Source: Paludibacteraceae bacterium (GTDB lineage: Bacteria; Bacteroidota; Bacteroidia; Bacteroidales; Paludibacteraceae). Taken from it: 64,000 bases of DNA. The notes under the pieces are model-generated. The model was not told the origin of the DNA and ran no database searches. It saw only the letters and a program-made list of their open reading frames with translations. Positions 19,979 through 28,061 of this stretch are shown piece by piece. Numbering within the stretch: the first letter of the stretch is position 1; each line of letters opens with the position of its first letter. The stretch spans positions 34,555 to 98,554 of the forward strand of contig JAFVBR010000022.1 of NCBI GenBank assembly GCA_017479885.1, read 5' to 3'. Both the position numbers and the translations under genes were made by a program.

Positions 19979-20019
19979 AAATATGATAGTTTGTTTTTTT
20001 AACGGAATAGTTGATTCTA

Positions 20020-20190
20020 TTATAGATTTTCATTGGTGAGTATATTGGTATTGCTGTCTGTTGAAATATCCGATTGAGCAATTTCAACAGGTGGTTCTGC
20101 AATCTCACAATCACAAGGAAGTTCAGGTTCACAACTCCACAACATTAGTGCAGAGAAGAACATTGCGCAAATAATAAAAATATTTTTCAT
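20020..20190 (-). CDS. small Cys-rich lipoprotein (hypothetical), last gene of the island
   Basis: Trimmed to MKNIFIICAMFFSALMLWSCEPELPCDCE. 56 aa. Confidence 0.4.
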   Translation of the reverse strand: MKNIFIICAMFFSALMLWSCEPELPCDCEIAEPPVEIAQSDISTDSNTNILTNENL

Positions 20191-20218
20191 ACAAAATAGT
20201 AATTTGTTGTTTTGTCTT

Positions 20219-21958
20219 TTATTGCTTGATGAATTTTGCTTGCAGTTGTTCGCCGTCAACGGTTAGAGCACGAACAATATACATTCCTGCTGGTAGCGAT
20301 GAAACGTTTATCTCTGTCTCCGTGGTTTGCAAAACGGGTTGACCACTGAGAGAATAGATAGTGATAACAGATATTTCCTTTGAATAATATATATTGAGGA
20401 TGTTGTTAACGGGATTAGGGGTTATTTTTAATAAATTCGACTTATATGTGCTTCTCTTTAACTTTGACATTCTAGGTTGTGGGACATTGTTATTTGAATT
20501 GGTCTCCTCTTCATAAGTTACGCAATGCATATCTTTAATTGTGATGTGAACATCAGATCCAGATTTTAGATGTACTCCATTTGTTAAATGCACAAAATCG
20601 CCAGAATAGATCAATGCCCTCTGACCGGATTCTACCTCTCTGTTTGAGATTATTAATCCTCCACCATTTAGCTCAGCGTGTTCATTCTCCCAAATGATGG
20701 TATCTGCCACTGTTTTTATAGTACAATTAGGTTCCGGACGAATATAGAATAATGCTCCCTGCCAATGATTGTAATTACTATGTATTGTGTCCAATATACC
20801 ATCATGGTCTTTATCGTATATATCAGTTACAGATATGCTATCCAGTGAGAAATAATCATTGTGCATTCCATTCCAGCCGAAATTTATATGAAATCTGCCC
20901 ACCCCATTATATCCATCAACTACAAAGATATGTCCATTAGAATAGAATGAATCAACACCACCATTATATATAACTGGTCTTCCCTCCTGTAGTTCACGAA
21001 TCACTTTATTAGTCCAACCTGAGGTTAGTATTTTTGAGTAATGTTGCATTGTATGAGAATACCCAAAAAACATCAATGCATTATCCAAATAAAACTGGTC
21101 ACTTGTAGATTCATTAGATTTATATTTTGTTTTTAATCTAAAGCCACAATCTCTCATTAATTTTGCAATCATATTAACATGCGGAATAGGTGTAGTGTTG
21201 GTTACGTTCGCTGGCATTATACTCCAATCATATTCACTTAACCTCATATTATTACTTGGCTTCCCATTTTTAGAGATTGTGTCAGGAACCATTGCCGCAT
21301 AAGGAAATTTATAGTACCACATCACTTGAGCCATGGCAACTGCTCCACAACCAACATATGTATGTCCGCAATGACCATCTGCATTATACCATGTAGGGCA
21401 CAATTTGTTATAGTATTTGTCGCAATCATTGACCGAAGCATTTGAGAAACTTTGGTTCCATTTGTTTTCCAACGTTTTTTCTCCTAACAATGGCGCTACA
21501 GCACCTGATGTCCTTGTTAGAAGCGGTTGACGGTTAATTATTCTATTCCAATCTTCATTTACGACATCAATACTATCAGAAGAGTTATGCAAGAAACTCA
21601 TAACATCTTCATAATATGAATACAATTCTAAGGCGGCTGGCGGAATATCATTCCAGTCAGGTTTATTTGCACATTCTACCAGAATAGGAACTGCACGCAA
21701 GTCTGACGAAACGACATAATACTTATCATTCTCGTGAACAAGAAAGAGATTAGCTTTTCCTGCAGGCGAAATCATTGAAACTTTAGTTGTATCAATATTC
21801 TTGCTTTCATTTTCATCATTCCAAGAACTCAAGCTCTGATGTTTCACGGCCAAGACTGCTAATTCCTTTGTGACAGAGTACCTGTTATTTGCAACTAATG
21901 AGCAACAATAACTTAGGGTTATTATCAAACTCAATAATATGTTGTGAAAAATTTTCAT
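20219..21958 (-). CDS. peptidase C10 (streptopain/SpeB-like) with T9SS C-terminal sorting domain
   Basis: Catalytic Cys context VGCGAVAMAQVMWYYKFP, His context SNGHIFVVDGYN, FGWNG. C-terminal roughly 70 aa Por_Secre_tail-like (ITPNPVNNIL...GMYIVRA...FIKQ). Confidence 0.85.
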   Translation of the reverse strand: MKIFHNILLSLIITLSYCCSLVANNRYSVTKELAVLAVKHQSLSSWNDENESKNIDTTKVSMISPAGKANLFLVHENDKYYVVSSDLRAVPILVECANKPDWNDIPPAALELYSYYEDVMSFLHNSSDSIDVVNEDWNRIINRQPLLTRTSGAVAPLLGEKTLENKWNQSFSNASVNDCDKYYNKLCPTWYNADGHCGHTYVGCGAVAMAQVMWYYKFPYAAMVPDTISKNGKPSNNMRLSEYDWSIMPANVTNTTPIPHVNMIAKLMRDCGFRLKTKYKSNESTSDQFYLDNALMFFGYSHTMQHYSKILTSGWTNKVIRELQEGRPVIYNGGVDSFYSNGHIFVVDGYNGVGRFHINFGWNGMHNDYFSLDSISVTDIYDKDHDGILDTIHSNYNHWQGALFYIRPEPNCTIKTVADTIIWENEHAELNGGGLIISNREVESGQRALIYSGDFVHLTNGVHLKSGSDVHITIKDMHCVTYEEETNSNNNVPQPRMSKLKRSTYKSNLLKITPNPVNNILNIYYSKEISVITIYSLSGQPVLQTTETEINVSSLPAGMYIVRALTVDGEQLQAKFIKQ

Positions 21959-22572
21959 AACGTAATTCTCTTGAATATGACTCCCTTGTTGTTCATTTCC
22001 TCTTCAAAATCATCGCTCTCAAGCATGAAAGAAATTATCTCAATATGGTATTTTTGTATAGAGTCACAATATTCTCGATCGATTATAGTAGTTTCATCCT
22101 GAGAACAAGTATAAATGTTAAAAATATTTTCTTCAAAATCTGATAAGCTCTTAGAATATATCCAATAAGCCTTTTCTATTAAGTCATTGCGTGATGGTGT
22201 CTCAGGAGGCCAATTTTGTGGATACTCTGTAAAATCAGACCATGGTAACAAAATAAATCGTCTTTGATCATTTAAGAACCATGTAGGATCCCATTTGTAA
22301 TCAACAAAAACATAATCTTTTGGCAATCCTATATATGGATTTTTCCCTAAAACATCAGATTTACACACTGTAAAGTCGTGGCACATACAAAAGCCAACAC
22401 GATCAATGACAGGTGGCATTATATAATTCTCATACTCATGTTTTTTGAATTTAATTATTGTCCACCACGGAGATTCTGGGGGAGGGGGAGGCATGCCATG
22501 ATCACATTGACAAAACATGAATGACAATAATAGACAGATTAAGACTTTTAATATGATACCACTTGTTTTCAT
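21955..22572 (-). CDS. secreted hypothetical protein translationally coupled to the C10 peptidase
   Basis: Signal peptide/lipobox-like LSFMFCQC, PPPPP linker, 205 aa. ATGA overlap with the C10 start. Confidence 0.6.
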   Translation of the reverse strand: MKTSGIILKVLICLLLSFMFCQCDHGMPPPPPESPWWTIIKFKKHEYENYIMPPVIDRVGFCMCHDFTVCKSDVLGKNPYIGLPKDYVFVDYKWDPTWFLNDQRRFILLPWSDFTEYPQNWPPETPSRNDLIEKAYWIYSKSLSDFEENIFNIYTCSQDETTIIDREYCDSIQKYHIEIISFMLESDDFEEEMNNKGVIFKRITL

Positions 22573-22573
22573 G

Positions 22574-24007
22574 TTATTTGCTTATGAGGCTTTCCAGTTC
22601 TTTTATTATCTCGTCCTGCTGAATAGTGTAAATTGTCAATTCCTCCACTTTCTGCAGAAGTAAGATGACTAATTTATCCAAACTAACACCATTTTCCTGC
22701 ATTTCTTCTGCTGAAGGAATCTCCGGCAGGTGTTTGTATGTATTAATGAAGGCCTTAGTCTCTTGCAGAGAACGCAGATTATAATCACTATCAAATACGA
22801 AATCGGCTCCGGAAGTCGATCTCACGTATATATCATCTGCTACAATATTTGTTGCTTTAATATTTGAAGTGGTAACAGAATCAGTGGCTCTGAGTTTTGT
22901 TGAATGAATATCTGTAGCCAATAAATTCCCGTTCACCTCTAATTTATAATTAGGATTATTTGTTCCTATTCCCACATTACCATTGCTGTTAAGTATTGTA
23001 ACCCATGTTGTTGGTGCAGTTTCATTTATGTTAGTATTGAAAGTCTTGAAATATAAATTTTGGTCTGCTCCGCTTGAGATTTCACCATTGGCAACCATTA
23101 TAGGCTTATAGAAATAGAAACGAGGTAATGAGGTATGAAAATGTGAATACGACCAACCCTGCGCACCAATTGTTGTAGTACCGGCATCTGTTCGTATGGT
23201 CAGTGCTCCTAAAGTGCCGTTTCCCCTGACATAACCATTAATATGCAATGTTTCTTCGGGCTCGTCAGTCCCTATTCCCACGTGACCGTTGTTGTCTATT
23301 GTCAATCGCGTAGTGTTGTCTGTCCTCAGTTCCAGTTGCTCCTGCCCGTAAGGGTTTATCTTTCCTCCCGCGATATACAGAGGTTTGCTGAAGAAGAAAG
23401 CCGGCCGGTCTGTATAAAAATGCGAGTAGTTTGCATTGGCGGCACCAATCTCAGTTGTGCCCTCGGTGGTGCGGATGCGCCAGGAACCGCTCTCTCCGTC
23501 TCCTCGCACAGGACCGTTCACATGCAGTCTCTCCTGCGGCTGAATGCCTACACCCAAATTCGAGTATATCACTTGGTCTGATGTTCCTGTGTTCATATAC
23601 CGATATGAGAGTTTGAACCCGCGATATATCTCTCCGCTGTTGCCGTTAACAGACAAGAGGACAATGCGGAAAACATGATTCGATGTATATGCCTGAACAC
23701 TACCCGTCATCGGCTGGTAGTTATAGTTTAAAACATCATGCTCTGTATGGTTCTCATCTTCGGTATATATATGTAGTGCATCTATTGCACCACCCGGATT
23801 CAAATCTATAATGTATTCAAACTCTACGTAATTATAATCTTCGGGTATGGAAAATTGCCACTCCTTGATTGTACATTTTTCATAGTCATCTCCCCAACAT
23901 TCAATACTGGTGCCGGGGTTGGTAATGACAGGTTGCACAACAGGACATTCTGCAAACAACGACAATGGCAGAACAGCAAACAATATATTCAGTACTGACT
24001 TTTTCAT
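22574..24007 (-). CDS. fibre-like repeat protein (CUB-like N-domain, about 100-aa repeats carrying GxVGIGT motifs, C-terminal coiled coil)
   Basis: Signal peptide. N-domain ends GFKLSYRY. Motifs NLGVGIQPQERLHVNG, GHVGIGTDEPEETLHINGY, GNVGIGTNNPNYKLEVNG. Tail ...HLPEIPSAEEMQENGVSLDKLVILLLQKVEELTIYTI. Confidence 0.7.
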   Translation of the reverse strand: MKKSVLNILFAVLPLSLFAECPVVQPVITNPGTSIECWGDDYEKCTIKEWQFSIPEDYNYVEFEYIIDLNPGGAIDALHIYTEDENHTEHDVLNYNYQPMTGSVQAYTSNHVFRIVLLSVNGNSGEIYRGFKLSYRYMNTGTSDQVIYSNLGVGIQPQERLHVNGPVRGDGESGSWRIRTTEGTTEIGAANANYSHFYTDRPAFFFSKPLYIAGGKINPYGQEQLELRTDNTTRLTIDNNGHVGIGTDEPEETLHINGYVRGNGTLGALTIRTDAGTTTIGAQGWSYSHFHTSLPRFYFYKPIMVANGEISSGADQNLYFKTFNTNINETAPTTWVTILNSNGNVGIGTNNPNYKLEVNGNLLATDIHSTKLRATDSVTTSNIKATNIVADDIYVRSTSGADFVFDSDYNLRSLQETKAFINTYKHLPEIPSAEEMQENGVSLDKLVILLLQKVEELTIYTIQQDEIIKELESLISK

Positions 24008-24384
24008 TGCTTCTGCCCTCCTATTGTCTTGCTACTGATTGCCTCGCGTCTTGTATGTTGTTTTACTTGCATGGTAGCATATTGCTCGTCTGTCAGAATA
24101 TTTCTCATCTGCATGCTGTATTCCTTCCATGCTGCTGCCTTGGCTTCAACAAGTGCCTTGTCATCAGAAGCATATCCCGAATTGGCAGCAACCACAGCTT
24201 CGGCATATCTTGTCGTTGCAGCAGTCAGTCGGGTTGTCTGTTCTGCACTCAGCTGAACATCTGCCGTCACATCCTGCACCATCTCCTGAGCCAAGGTTTG
24301 CGGACTTTTCTGCAAGGAAGAGGTCTGTGCCGTTACAGGAATCATCATCCCCAGCAATGCTGCAATAATAATGGTCTTCTTCAT
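24004..24384 (-). CDS. small secreted LTxxQ-motif protein (Spy/CpxP-like?), full-length copy
   Basis: Signal peptide MKKTIIIAALLGMMIPVTAQ. LSAEQTTRL and LTDEQYATM motifs. 126 aa. ATGA overlap with the fibre gene. Confidence 0.65.
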   Translation of the reverse strand: MKKTIIIAALLGMMIPVTAQTSSLQKSPQTLAQEMVQDVTADVQLSAEQTTRLTAATTRYAEAVVAANSGYASDDKALVEAKAAAWKEYSMQMRNILTDEQYATMQVKQHTRREAISSKTIGGQKQ

Positions 24385-24412
24385 ATTAAATAATATTTTG
24401 TTGTTCTGTTTC

Positions 24413-26434
24413 TTATTGTTTTATGAATTTTGCTTGTAGTTGTTCTCCATCAGTGGTTATTGCACGCACTATATACATTCCTGCAGGTAGCGCAGCAACA
24501 CTAATCTCTGTCTCTGCAGTTTGCAATACAGGTTGACCACTGAGAGAATAAATGATAACCATGGACAATTGCTCTGTTGAATTGATAGTCAAAATGGTAT
24601 TAGCGGGATTTGGAGAAATATAAAACTTCTCATTAGCCTCTATGCTTTTATCATTATCTTGATATGATGCCTTGTCTTCAGAATTAATATTTCGTCTCAT
24701 TAAAGCAGGAGCAGAACTGTTATTTGCTTGCGGTTGTTCTATATAGGCATGGAAAGTACCTCCACGTTCAACGCGAAAACCAGGTTTAAGATGAATCTTG
24801 TCTGTTGCCTTGAAAGTTACATTGCTACCTGATTTTACTACTACATTCCCATAAGGAACTGCATTTGTAACAGAGTAACCTGCAAAAATCTCAGGGTAAT
24901 ACTCTATGATACTTGTGCCACTTTCGTATGTCTTGTTCTGTATATATTGTCGTCGGGCTTCTTTTACTGCTTCATAAGCATTGACCAACCCATACCCTAC
25001 TTCCTCATTCCATGTTCCATCAGAATATGTTGTATTAAATGAATACCTCGTCAATTTGTAAGCGGTCTTTCTAATGATTGAGCGAACTTGCGACCAAGTT
25101 AAATCTGGATTAACAGATAACATCAAAGCTGCTATACCTGCAACAAAAGGGCATGCCATAGATGTACCTGAAGGATTATCATATTGATCATGAATATCTG
25201 TTGTCCATATTAATGTCCCAGGTGCCACAACATCTAATCTTTCACCATAGTTAGAAGTGGTTTTTCTTATTCCAGTTTCATTTATATTGCCTACCGAAAT
25301 TGTATGTATATTAGACGAAGGATAATTAATTGTGTCTTTAGAATCGTTGCCAGATGCGCAGACTACAATGCATCCTTTTTTATCTCTTCCTTTATTAACA
25401 GCCTCTTTTATCACTTTATTTAATATAGTAGTTTGTTCCTCATATGACCAAGAGTTACTTATTACATCAGCATGGGACGTATTGATTGCATATCGAAAAG
25501 CTTTAATATTCCAACTAACTTTTGAATACCAATGATGTTCTCTCTTTTTTTTGTTGAATAGACTATATGCCTTCCTAATCGGAATAATTTTACTATTATA
25601 TGCTACACCAACACAACCAATGTTATTATTTACCGCAGCTATAATACCTGCACAATATGTTCCGTGTCTATCTGCTTTATTTGGGAAAGATGCATCGGCA
25701 TATCCTCCATTTATACCTCCTCTATTCCCATCTGTGCAATCATAACCTGGTAACATGTTATCATATAAATCAACATGGGTTAAATCTACTCCTTCATCAA
25801 TAACCGCTACACGTATGTTTTCACCTGTTGATAAAGTCCACGCTTCTGGAGCATTTACATCAATCATAGGATCAAGAATGTTATTTAATCCCCATTGGTA
25901 TGAATATTTGGGGTTATTAGTTTCATTGGATAATGCTTGCTTTGATATAATCATGTAATCAGGTTCTGCAATTCGACAAAAAGTGGAATCAGATGTTACT
26001 TTATTACAGATGCTGTCTATTTTAGTATAAGATAGATTTCTTACGGATAAAGTAAAACAAGCAGGAGTTCCTATAATCGTATCAATACTTATAATATTAG
26101 ATAGTAAGCCGTAGTGATTTAACAATAGTGATAAGTCATTGACGTCATACAAAATAATCGTATTTTGCATTGCGCATTCTGTATCTTGTTTCTTCCATAC
26201 AGGGGAATAGAAAATAGCATTATTTGTGCATGCAGTGTCATTATTAACATGATATGTTTCACCTATATATGTTTTTAAACCTATTCTATTTATGTAAAGA
26301 CTATCAAAAACATTTAAATCTTTGTTGGTAATGCATAAAGTACTATCTGTCTGCACCCATCCTTCATTATATTGTGCAAACAAATTTATACTTATACTTA
26401 ATATAAGTATTATTAATAGAAAGTGTGATTTCAT
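24413..26434 (-). CDS. subtilisin-like S8 serine peptidase with T9SS C-terminal sorting domain
   Basis: Asp VAVIDEGVD, His HGTYCAGIIAA, Ser GTSMACPFVAGIAALM. C-terminal sorting domain has 40 of its last 46 residues identical to that of the C10 protein (hand count). ATG at 26434 preferred over TTG at 26443. Confidence 0.85.
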   Translation of the reverse strand: MKSHFLLIILILSISINLFAQYNEGWVQTDSTLCITNKDLNVFDSLYINRIGLKTYIGETYHVNNDTACTNNAIFYSPVWKKQDTECAMQNTIILYDVNDLSLLLNHYGLLSNIISIDTIIGTPACFTLSVRNLSYTKIDSICNKVTSDSTFCRIAEPDYMIISKQALSNETNNPKYSYQWGLNNILDPMIDVNAPEAWTLSTGENIRVAVIDEGVDLTHVDLYDNMLPGYDCTDGNRGGINGGYADASFPNKADRHGTYCAGIIAAVNNNIGCVGVAYNSKIIPIRKAYSLFNKKKREHHWYSKVSWNIKAFRYAINTSHADVISNSWSYEEQTTILNKVIKEAVNKGRDKKGCIVVCASGNDSKDTINYPSSNIHTISVGNINETGIRKTTSNYGERLDVVAPGTLIWTTDIHDQYDNPSGTSMACPFVAGIAALMLSVNPDLTWSQVRSIIRKTAYKLTRYSFNTTYSDGTWNEEVGYGLVNAYEAVKEARRQYIQNKTYESGTSIIEYYPEIFAGYSVTNAVPYGNVVVKSGSNVTFKATDKIHLKPGFRVERGGTFHAYIEQPQANNSSAPALMRRNINSEDKASYQDNDKSIEANEKFYISPNPANTILTINSTEQLSMVIIYSLSGQPVLQTAETEISVAALPAGMYIVRAITTDGEQLQAKFIKQ

Positions 26435-26435
26435 A

Positions 26436-27023
26436 TTATTCAACTATTTTAAATGCTATTTCAAATTGAGGTAATTTAATCCAAGTCGTATCTGGTTTAG
26501 TATCGTAATATGAGTTAAAATAATAATCCCCCAAGTTCGGAATAGGACGGTGTCGGTATCTTAACAAATAGTTTCCTGCCTTTATCTTACAATCACTTAT
26601 ACGCCCGAACAGAAACTCTCCTCCTATAGGCAATTCTTTAACATGTGTTGAATCTATTATTATCGCAGGGCTATCCCAACCGGATGGTTGTGACCAGTCT
26701 CTTATTGGTTGAGATGTAAATTGATGAAACTGTATGGACTCATCGATGTAATATTTGAAAGAGTCAGTAGGATTTAGAAATCTTTCTTCTGCACTTAATG
26801 GGATTTCAGAAGAGTCATTTATAATGTCAAAATGTAATATAAAGTTCTCTCTTTCTTTATACGTTGTGGACAATTCTCCTTTTGTCGTTGTCAAATAATA
26901 ATGAAATGATATTCCTTCGTAATTATATACCATAGGATTACCTATATTTTCTCGAACAATAATATTATTATCGCAAGAAACAATACAAAGTATAACAAAT
27001 AAATATAAACTACATTTTTTCAT
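26436..27023 (-). CDS. hypothetical lipoprotein immediately upstream of the S8 peptidase
   Basis: Lipobox IVSC. 195 aa. The stop TAA is 1 nt before the peptidase ATG. Confidence 0.6.
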   Translation of the reverse strand: MKKCSLYLFVILCIVSCDNNIIVRENIGNPMVYNYEGISFHYYLTTTKGELSTTYKERENFILHFDIINDSSEIPLSAEERFLNPTDSFKYYIDESIQFHQFTSQPIRDWSQPSGWDSPAIIIDSTHVKELPIGGEFLFGRISDCKIKAGNYLLRYRHRPIPNLGDYYFNSYYDTKPDTTWIKLPQFEIAFKIVE

Positions 27024-27085
27024 GATATGTAATCTAACTAATCTGAATATTGCTTTAATCTAACAAGAACTATTTAACTGGTGAC

Positions 27086-27883
27086 TTATTTGTTTAAGTT
27101 TTGGATTTTATCTGTCAAATCTTGAATAATTCTATTTTGTTGTTGAATAGTTTCTTCTTGATTTATGGTATATAAAGTTAGTTCTTCTATTTTTTGCAAC
27201 ATCAGTATTACCAGTTCTTTCACGTTTACTCCATTCTGCTGCATATCTTCTGCAGAAGGAATGCCTGGTAAATGTTTGTTGTTTTCTATGAAAATCTTAA
27301 CATTTGATAACGGATGTAAATCATACTCCTCGTCGAAGACAAAATCTGCGCCATTATTTACATTTATAAGTACTTCATTTGCATGTATAGTTCCATTTAC
27401 ATCTAATTTGTATTCAGGATTATCTGTTCCTATACCGACATTCCCCTTATTCATGAACCAACTGTTGCCTGTGGTATGTAAATGAATCTTTTCTTCTTGA
27501 ACGCCGTTAGCTGTAGCACTATACATCCTAAGTCGAGAAAAGAGGGTATCGCCGTTATAACCACCCGGAACCAAGTCAACAGAATTATGTGAATAAACTC
27601 CTCGTGGAGTTCCCAGTACCAAACTATGTCCTTCCCAAAAAAGGTGACTGCGCTTCCAATCTCCATTTGCTCCATGCTCTATAGAATCCGTGTGCAGATA
27701 TACGTCCCCATTCACATCAAGTTTATGTTGTGGATTATCAGTACCGATTCCCACATTCCCGGTTCCGTATTGTATCCTCATGTGCGTAGTGTTGAAGGTC
27801 TGTAGTTGCAGGTCAACACGTTCTATCGAACTTATCACTCCTCCTTGCACTGACAATGGCTTGTTGAAATAAAACTTCGGCAT
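27086..27883 (-). pseudogene. 5'-truncated paralogue of the fibre-like gene (no signal peptide, no CUB-like domain)
   Basis: Begins MPKFYFNKP, equivalent to residue ~290 (LPRFYFYKP) of the 477-aa copy. Retains GNVGIGTDNPQHKLDVNG, GNVGIGTDNPEYKLDVNG and the HLPGIPSAEDMQQNG...IEELTLYTI tail. Confidence 0.7.
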
Positions 27884-28061
27884 ATTTAGTAGTAGCCAAG
27901 GTCAGTCGGGTTGTCTGTTCCGCAGTCAACGGAACATCTGCCGCCACATCCTGCACCATCTCCTGAGCCAAGGTTTGCGGACTCTTCTGCAAGGAAGAGG
28001 TCTGTGCCAAAGCAGGATTCATCATCCCGAGCAATGCTGCAATAATAATGGTCTTCTTCAT
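27813..28061 (-). pseudogene. truncated second copy of the small LTxxQ gene, fused out of frame to the truncated fibre gene
   Basis: 54 of the first 62 residues are identical to the 24004-24384 product, up to ...YAE. It then reads through the fibre sequence in another frame to a TGA. Confidence 0.7.

Follow-up and report, generated by a model that had tools for sequence, protein, structure and literature searches.

An AT-rich island of a Paludibacteraceae genome encodes a secreted fibre protein that is probably a mosaic of modules exchanged at capping-loop motifs

The stretch of DNA analysed here (the window) comprises 64,000 nucleotides (nt) from Paludibacteraceae bacterium (GenBank assembly GCA_017479885.1, contig JAFVBR010000022.1, positions 34,555 to 98,554), which belong to a draft genome of 2.8 Mb with 46.7% GC; the nearest protein relatives carry the label of Paludibacteraceae metagenome-assembled genomes (MAGs). 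Within the window lies an AT-rich island of 9.4 kb (positions 19980–29360; ~36% GC versus 47–53% in the flanks), which is bordered by a glycogen debranching gene on one side and by a mannose-1-phosphate guanylyltransferase gene on the other. All genes of the island, and the features within them that are described below, are on the minus strand, and the genes are arranged as tandem cassettes composed of a small gene, a fibre gene, a lipoprotein gene, and a gene for a protease of the type IX secretion system (T9SS). Our subject is the fibre gene fib1 (22574–24007), which encodes a protein of 477 amino acids (aa), together with small1 (24004–24384) immediately upstream and a truncated fibre gene, fib2, in the neighbouring cassette. 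An initial annotation of this DNA had noted a shift in composition inside fib1 at the peptide SLPRFYFYKP and had proposed that an AT-rich mobile unit was grafted there onto a resident proximal fibre part.

The fib1 protein is predicted to consist, in order, of a signal peptide, a CUB-like β-sandwich, two MAT/tail-fibre-like repeats of ~100 aa each, a variable tip, and a C-terminal coiled coil. The protein fits no Pfam or NCBIfam model, and a protein search of 5.8 billion sequences recovered 2102 homologues, none of which carries a Pfam domain. The PHROG tail-fibre families match the fib1 repeats (E 2e-12), and phmmer aligns the repeat region with the Bdellovibrio MAT fibre structures 8ojn (E 2.7e-5) and 8ond. 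These phmmer alignments fall exactly on the capping-loop motifs of fib1, which read VGIGTDEPEETL at residues 243–254 and VGIGTNNPNYKL at residues 345–356, with a looser third copy at residues 152–161. By using Foldseek with an AlphaFold 2 monomer model (mean predicted local distance difference test score 77, predicted template-modelling score 0.37), we found the best matches for the repeats in Bd2133, Bd3182, and Bd1334 (8ond, E 8.5e-7; 8onc; 8oml), whereas residues ~27–138 matched CUB domains. The modelled helix at residues 443–476 is compatible with a coiled coil. Thus, fib1 resembles MAT and tail fibres in having repeated β-helix segments that are closed by a capping-loop motif. A Peptidase_S74 C-terminal domain was not found with Pfam (E ≤ 0.01) or NCBIfam (E ≤ 1), and the only match in the Protein Data Bank that bears on this domain was a marginal one to MyRF (E 0.55).

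The small1 gene encodes a secreted protein of 126 aa that is weakly DUF4890-like, includes the words LSAEQ and LTDEQ, and overlaps the start of fib1 by the sequence ATGA. An open reading frame (ORF) for 105–126 aa is present immediately upstream of the fibre gene in eight of eight related loci (L001, L003, L006, and L038–L042). The copy at L001 is also weakly DUF4890-like, and the copies of L001, L003, and L006, the only three compared, match small1 at 53–82% aa identity. The small1 protein may be a dedicated periplasmic chaperone for the fibre.

To locate breaks in composition, we used maximum-likelihood segmentation with permutation tests and support intervals of two log-likelihood units (2-lnL). 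The GC counts given earlier for single lines of 60 nt were accurate on recounting (0.67, 0.48, and 0.52 for the lines at 23461, 23281, and 23161; 0.37, 0.37, and 0.33 for those at 23101, 23041, and 22981), and the GC profile is indeed not smooth. When all sites are considered, GC content breaks after fib1 codon 286 (window position 23149; 2-lnL interval 23059–23180; permutation p 0.004), and p is 0.001 over the whole unit of small1 and fib1. However, GC content at third codon positions (GC3) splits best after codon 250 (window position 23257; interval codons 242–271), where it falls from 0.56 to 0.31, and a GC3 break placed at codon 292 is 4.1 lnL worse. This GC3 step has a permutation p of 0.008 over the whole gene and a log-likelihood ratio (LLR) of 13.5 within codons 91–400.

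GC3 along fib1 is 0.36 for codons 1–90, 0.56 for codons 91–242, 0.31 for codons 248–350, 0.24 for codons 351–400, and 0.42 for codons 401–477, whereas the median for 1211 long ORFs of this genome is 0.54, with the 5th percentile at 0.39. In small1, codons 1–45 have a value of 0.60 and the later codons one of 0.39. Host-like GC3 is therefore limited to the first 45 codons of small1 and to codons 91–247 of fib1 (23267–23737; GC3 0.55–0.56, the maximum of the island). The earlier description of the first ~290 codons as host-like holds for that patch but not for codons 1–90, whose GC3 lies below the 5th percentile of the host. Because the whole island is AT-rich, the GC-richer patches are the exception. 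Codons 91–247 differ from codons 248–400 with a Fisher p of 1.8e-6, although this split was chosen post hoc.

The distance between the two breaks is accounted for by the repeats themselves. When each repeat is cut at its P.F.F.KP motif, GC3 is 0.57 in half-repeat A1 (codons 152–200), 0.60 in A2 (codons 201–247), 0.35 in B1 (codons 248–293), and 0.29 in B2 (codons 294–349), whereas GC content at positions 1 and 2 is 0.57, 0.47, 0.52, and 0.38, respectively. The synonymous step thus falls between repeats A and B, whereas the drop at positions 1 and 2 recurs within each repeat at P.F.F.KP. The drop in total GC comes ~40 codons after the GC3 step because Gly, Ala, Thr, and Arg codons abound in the first half of each repeat, and the sum of the synonymous step and the periodic fall is largest at the second P.F.F.KP, which is the motif singled out previously. 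This motif, SLPRFYFYKP (23102–23131, codons 293–302), lies 18 nt downstream of the total-GC change-point, and the nearest relative of fib1 does not change here. Periodic amino-acid composition can therefore shift a total-GC breakpoint away from the true recombination junction, which was located correctly by GC3 together with the DNA of relatives.

We compared the DNA of eight related loci with that of the fib1 region, both with codon-aware alignments and by BLASTN. A 5′ block (23268–24556) is 85% identical at the nucleotide level to L001, the locus whose fibre gene encodes protein P0009. This block, which BLASTN aligns over 1291 nt, spans the C-terminal domain (CTD) tail of the upstream protease gene, a leader, small1, and fib1 codons 1–247, and L001 is the nearest relative for fib1 codons 1–240 (75–95% nt identity). 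The relationship changes at GHVGIGT (23267–23287, codons 241–247), a candidate recombination junction that is also the position of the GC3 step and that precedes the previously proposed graft point by ~45 codons: codons 234–240 match L001, whereas codons 243 and 246 and all codons from 248 match L003. Repeat B (22961–23266, codons 248–349; GC3 0.31) is 73–93% identical to the L003 and L006 alleles, whereas its identity to L001 is 35–63%, at which the alignment is unreliable or impossible. Identity to L003 continues unbroken across P.F.F.KP (0.88, 0.93, and 0.88), including codons 289–308, and stops, as does that to L006, at about codon 359, ~10 codons after the second motif, GNVGIGT (22961–22981, codons 343–349). 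The BLASTN blocks correspondingly end at window position 23268 for L001 and at 22929 for L003.

The next segment is an orphan variable tip (22727–22960, codons 350–427; GC3 ~0.24). No near relative was found for codons ~360–425, and the best database match for codons 351–400 has 45% aa identity. The C-terminal coiled-coil segment (22577–22726, codons 428–477) is L001-like again, with 82–87% nt identity and with third-position identity of 0.64–0.74 at identical residues. The segments of fib1 therefore differ in their nearest relative.

Phylogenies of the proximal and distal parts, proposed earlier as a check, are incongruent. Cutting the segment homologues by BLAST mixed paralogous repeats (repeat A of P0009 with repeat B of fib1), and the segments were therefore taken from positional columns of a global alignment. 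For residues 1–242, fib1 and P0009 are sisters (support 100/99). For residues 248–350, fib1 groups with P0002–P0008, whereas P0009 groups with P0019. The approximately unbiased (AU) test on the data for residues 248–350 rejects a clade of fib1 and P0009 (delta lnL 88.5, p 5e-7), and the reverse constraint on the data for residues 1–242 is rejected more weakly (p 0.037). We infer that recombination rather than convergent selection lies behind this pattern.

Other members of the family change partners at the same kind of site. All of the exchange endpoints that we mapped are at G[NH]VGIGT..P...L motifs, and none is at P.F.F.KP. In addition to codons 241–247 of fib1 relative to L001, endpoints were placed at about codons 349–362 in the alleles P0002–P0008 and at codons 147–152 of fib2 relative to L001. 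The proteins P0002–P0008 are almost identical up to ...TILNSNGNVGIGT (~residue 349) and then have quite different tips, such that the proximal part is conserved and the distal part is diversified. The protein P0010 (363 aa) corresponds to P0002 (465 aa) with exactly one repeat (repeat B) removed, the deletion being located between two GxVGIGT motifs, and this natural deletion indicates that the same recombination also alters the number of repeats. The motif would accordingly act as a crossover site.

These observations are probably best explained if fib1 is a mosaic gene of an uncharacterised secreted fibre family that diversifies by recombination at conserved motifs. Homologous recombination would occur at short stretches of conserved DNA that also delimit structural modules. 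The main anchor would be the V-G-I-G-T-x-x-P-x-x-x-L capping-loop motif that closes each repeat of ~100 aa, the second would be the conserved C-terminal helical domain, and the third would be the upstream T9SS CTD tail with the leader and the small gene. Four pieces could then be distinguished, namely the small gene with codons 1–247, which would share ancestry with L001; codons 248 to ~359, which would share ancestry with the L003 and L006 alleles; codons ~360 to ~427, the orphan AT-rich tip; and codons 428–477, which are again L001-like.

Several points weigh against this interpretation. The relatives are all metagenome contigs or MAGs, and this genome yielded no donor for either the tip or the GC-rich patch. 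The nominal p-values are optimistic because the AU groups and the segment boundaries of the Fisher test were picked after the data had been seen, although the effect in the tree conflict is large nonetheless. The 2-lnL interval of the total-GC break takes in SLPRFYFYKP. Moreover, a matched-residue control of repeats A and B gave GC3 counts of 23/48 and 15/48 (sign test p 0.096), and this non-significant result means that the synonymous shift is moderate. Finally, either fib1 or the L001 gene could be the recombinant at codon 247. The L001 lineage may have replaced its distal part, in which case the fib1 junction would be old rather than recent.

The matched-residue control also favours an explanation without any exchange, wherein the GC profile of a vertically inherited gene would be due to amino-acid composition, to local selection on codon usage, or merely to chance. 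The periodic GC content of positions 1 and 2 accounts for part of the total-GC profile, and windows of 30 codons are noisy. Nevertheless, the GC3 step is significant by permutation (and has the LLR noted above), and it coincides with a change of nearest relative in the nucleotide comparison and with trees in strong conflict, which makes an unexchanged gene very improbable.

Two other origins were considered for the unusual segments of fib1 and were rejected. The pattern in the GC-rich patch does not fit amelioration toward the host. When third positions of codons 91–242 are polarised with L003 as the outgroup, the L001 branch has 13 GC-to-AT and 3 AT-to-GC changes, and the fib1 branch has 9 AT-to-GC and 5 GC-to-AT changes. 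Because the L001 host is more GC-rich and the changes on its branch are mainly GC-to-AT, simple amelioration is not a suitable explanation, and the polarised changes suggest that the ancestral segment already had a GC3 near 0.5. A donor within the genome for the GC-rich patch or the C terminus was sought by whole-genome tblastn, which gave only fib2 and a divergent paralogue of 293 aa on contig C43. The 3′ end of the C43 gene is 76–82% identical to fib1 at the nucleotide level. Because this is no closer than L001, recent gene conversion inside the genome was rejected.

The truncated gene fib2 (27086–27883) encodes 265 aa and is the remnant of a P0009-type fibre. Relative to L001, its DNA is 92–97% identical in the first 40 codons, 75–87% identical to about codon 160, and ~60% identical past the motif GNVGIG (27428–27445, codons 147–152). 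The close similarity to L001 ends at this motif, which is also the site of the all-site GC break in this copy (window position 27434, from 0.46 to 0.30, p 0.0005). The gene begins in the 9-nt sequence ATGCCGAAG (27875–27883), which reads Y-A-E in the small gene (tATGCCGAAG) and M-P-K in the fibre gene. Homology between the small-gene copies stops exactly at 27875, as can be seen from repeat family D2, in which 24198–24416 and 27875–28093 are 88% identical. Note that repeat families were used here because the deletion misled a global MAFFT alignment of both copies, of which only the first ~250 columns were usable. The L001 counterpart of the fib2 start reads AAC ATG CCA AAG TTC, and because ATG is present at the same place in L001, the Met codon of fib2 is native and the junction is that of a microhomology deletion. 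A microhomology-mediated deletion, unrelated to the exchanges in fib1, would thus have fused the small gene to the fibre gene at ATGCCGAAG and given rise to the fib2 start. As in other microhomology-mediated deletions that produce truncated tandem paralogues, the gene starts within a short identity and the intervening DNA has been lost. The event is nothing unusual, and its junction by accident provides the remnant with an in-frame ATG.

This truncation had been thought to coincide with the junction in fib1, which it does not. The protein P0009 (538 aa) resembles fib1 up to residue 247 and fib2 from residue 248, and it carries NMPKFYFNKP at residue 285. Because the switch precedes the motif, fib2 is missing 37 codons from the start of its module, and its start was set by microhomology inside that module. 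Likewise, MPKFYFNKP is ambiguous as the equivalent of SLPRFYFYKP because P.F.F.KP occurs twice in fib1 (codons 201–209 and 294–302) and fib2 can be aligned in both registers. The apparent coincidence has two separate causes.

We therefore consider it unlikely that a resident proximal part received, at P.F.F.KP, a single AT-rich mobile unit extending from the distal fibre part and coiled coil to the lipoprotein and protease, with the truncated copy marking the same point. The interval of the total-GC change-point overlaps the motif, and AT-rich DNA continues from there through lipo1 and the C10 protease gene, as such a graft would predict. However, the GC3 break and the switch of identity lie at codons 241–250, with continuous identity to L003 over P.F.F.KP, and the DNA of the second copy is not AT-rich after MPKFYFNKP but has 44–46% GC over 150 codons. 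Furthermore, the last ~50 codons of fib1 are L001-like at synonymous sites, which indicates that the replaced piece is internal and does not reach the lipoprotein. Tip swapping as in tail fibres, also envisaged in the initial annotation, does agree with our data insofar as fib1 is a mosaic with exchanged modules, but the graft point would be GxVGIGT.

The composition of the supposed unit also varies between loci. In L001, the glycogen debranching gene comes immediately after the fib2-type distal part, without an intervening lipo2 or S8 protease gene. The S8 protease of L006 is 63% identical to that of the window but is located behind a different tip and a different lipoprotein, in that it is preceded by a protein of 196 aa whose 3′ part corresponds to orf111 of the window (75%) rather than to lipo2. 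A fixed unit is better matched by L006 and L039, which occupy one chromosomal site, share upstream DNA and the head of the fibre gene, and differ in the tip and in all downstream DNA on the contig. A resident proximal part is plausible in the window, where divergence of the 5′ block from L001 (85% identity) is near that of the flanking glycogen genes (~82%), whereas the proximal module of the relatives is shared at 97–98%.

This shared module is a block of 1.44 kb, comprising the small gene and fibre codons 1 to ~360, that is 96.6–98% identical at the nucleotide level in L003 (7642–9085), L006 (7642–9085), L039 (3584–5003), and L040 (4263–5719). It starts at the ATG of the small gene or at most 67 nt before it and ends at fibre codon ~355–362. 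The flanks of the block are unrelated and represent three chromosomal sites, except that L006 and L039 share upstream DNA. GC3 in these L003-type alleles is 0.42–0.43 to codon 349 and 0.21–0.34 thereafter, a difference that is significant in two of the four. The hosts appear to be divergent, given 62% identity between the 561-aa neighbour proteins of L006 and L039 and 60–78% identity between the housekeeping proteins of L006 and those of this genome, versus 80–97% for their L003 counterparts. Judging from these sequences, the spread of the block suggests either recent transfer between species or concerted evolution.

If the head were the moving part, a GC-richer leader, small gene, CUB domain, and set of proximal repeats would have landed in front of AT-rich cassettes, and the step in fib1 would be the 3′ edge of the import. 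The near-identity of the block at three sites in divergent hosts, and a head GC3 of 0.42–0.46 in all four alleles, would agree with such a history. However, the head in the window is only 85% identical to its nearest relative, which is about the level of the flanks and fits vertical descent, and the three head copies within the window share only ~88% identity, so that no recent homogenisation has occurred. In addition, the kinship of the L003 and L006 hosts could be gauged only indirectly, because G201, the MAG with L003 and L004, is without the ftsA–murC flank region of L006. Import of the head into this locus is thus an improbable source of the fib1 step.

A broader form of the mosaic interpretation, which we regard as tentative and rather doubtful, is that rumen and gut Paludibacteraceae possess a modular system for fibre diversification. 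In this system, a self-contained head of 1.44 kb, which includes a gene for a putative Spy/DUF4890-like small chaperone, the CUB domain, and the proximal fibre repeats, would move among species and chromosomal sites and recombine at capping loops onto locus-specific AT-rich cassettes. If true, these cassettes would carry the tip, in most cases accompanied by a lipoprotein and a T9SS protease of their own, and fibre specificity would be coupled to a particular secreted protease.

In phages and tailocins, tail fibres become mosaic through recombination at conserved motifs located where a conserved N-terminal shaft meets variable receptor-binding tips. The fib1 family is similar in its PHROG match, in endpoints that are located at short conserved motifs, and in its incongruent proximal and distal trees. 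Unlike phage tail fibres, fib1 is without phage context, carries a Sec signal peptide, and has genes for secreted proteases as neighbours; no phage structural, integrase, or lysis genes were found among the ORFs of the island.

For the MAT fibres of Bdellovibrio bacteriovorus, a capping-loop consensus of V-G-G/N-π-x-x-P-x-x-x-L has been described, and tip swapping has been proposed explicitly on the basis of conserved proximal and diversified distal parts (Caulton et al. 2024, PMC10769870). The repeat region of fib1 is homologous to these fibres (Bd2133, Bd3182, and Bd1334), its V-G-x-G-T-x-x-P-x-x-x-L motif corresponds to their consensus, and its family likewise has a conserved proximal and a diversified distal part. 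In contrast to MAT fibres, fib1 comes from a host that is a Paludibacteraceae-like member of the Bacteroidales of the gut or rumen and not a predator, the N-terminal domain of fib1 is CUB-like, and no S74 chaperone domain was found in it with Pfam. The variable tip of the family is sub-terminal, with the last ~50–80 residues (the helical coiled coil) conserved again, and the genes reside in AT-rich islands, where each has a small DUF4890-like partner gene and most precede genes for a lipoprotein and a T9SS protease. A literature search for the motif string returned nothing relevant.

The mechanism, recombination at conserved motifs, is well known and ordinary. More interesting leads are provided by the fibre family and the near-identical head module. 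The family is an unannotated one of Bacteroidales that is related to Bdellovibrio MAT fibres and to phage tail fibres and that would diversify by exchanging modules at the capping loop, whereas a head that is 97–98% identical across divergent hosts offers a lead on the variation of surface adhesins and neighbouring T9SS proteases in gut and rumen Bacteroidales. Among 200 species representatives of the bacterial family that were searched, we found only distant relatives of fib1, which share just the C-terminal ~130 residues, and the close alleles come from metagenome contigs. Matches were obtained in 31 of the 200 genomes, mostly over fib1 residues ~340–475 only, which include the last capping loop, GADFVF...KHLPEIPSAEEM, and the coiled coil. 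The widely shared part of the fibre family is therefore the C-terminal module and not the CUB head.

The remaining genes of the island complete the cassettes. In the 5′ to 3′ direction, cassette 1 consists of small1 (24384–24004), fib1 (24007–22574), lipo1, and a C10 protease gene with a T9SS tail. Cassette 2 begins with a fusion of the 5′ portion of a second small gene to fib2 (27883–27086) and continues with lipo2 and an S8 protease gene with a T9SS tail; both proteases carry Por_Secre_tail domains (Pfam). A third small-gene head is present near 29269–29361. The reading frame orf111 (28863–29198) is 75% identical to residues 89–196 of the 196-aa post-fibre protein of L006, and in cassette 3, therefore, a small-gene head is joined to the 3′ portion of a post-fibre lipoprotein gene. 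The chromosomal site between the mannose-1-phosphate guanylyltransferase and glycogen debranching genes is variable, in that L001 and L003 hold different cassettes there, and with its deviant composition and its variable content at a conserved site, the island resembles a horizontally acquired one. No integrase or transposase was found among its ORFs; tRNA genes and att sites were not specifically searched.

The 3′ ends of the T9SS protease genes, which encode the CTD tail ...GEQLQAKFIKQ, recur at cassette boundaries in the window (20161–20419 and 24355–24613) and also in L001. Each is followed by a leader of ~30 nt, AACAACAAAnTAnTAT..ATG, copies of which are located at 24381–24408, 28058–28085, and 20187–20214 and again in L001. 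From its sequence, this repeat of CTD tail and leader could serve as the 5′ region of homology through which cassettes are exchanged or cross over unequally.

A third AT-rich island (27–41% GC) is present outside the window in the same genome, at positions 103000–110300 of contig C43. It carries genes for the short fibre paralogue of 293 aa, a lipoprotein of 274 aa, and a protein of 590 aa that ends in the ...FIKQ tail of the T9SS proteases of the window and is 33% identical at the amino-acid level to the C-terminal region of the S8 protease. The last ~50 residues of the C43 fibre paralogue are 93% identical to those of P0009.

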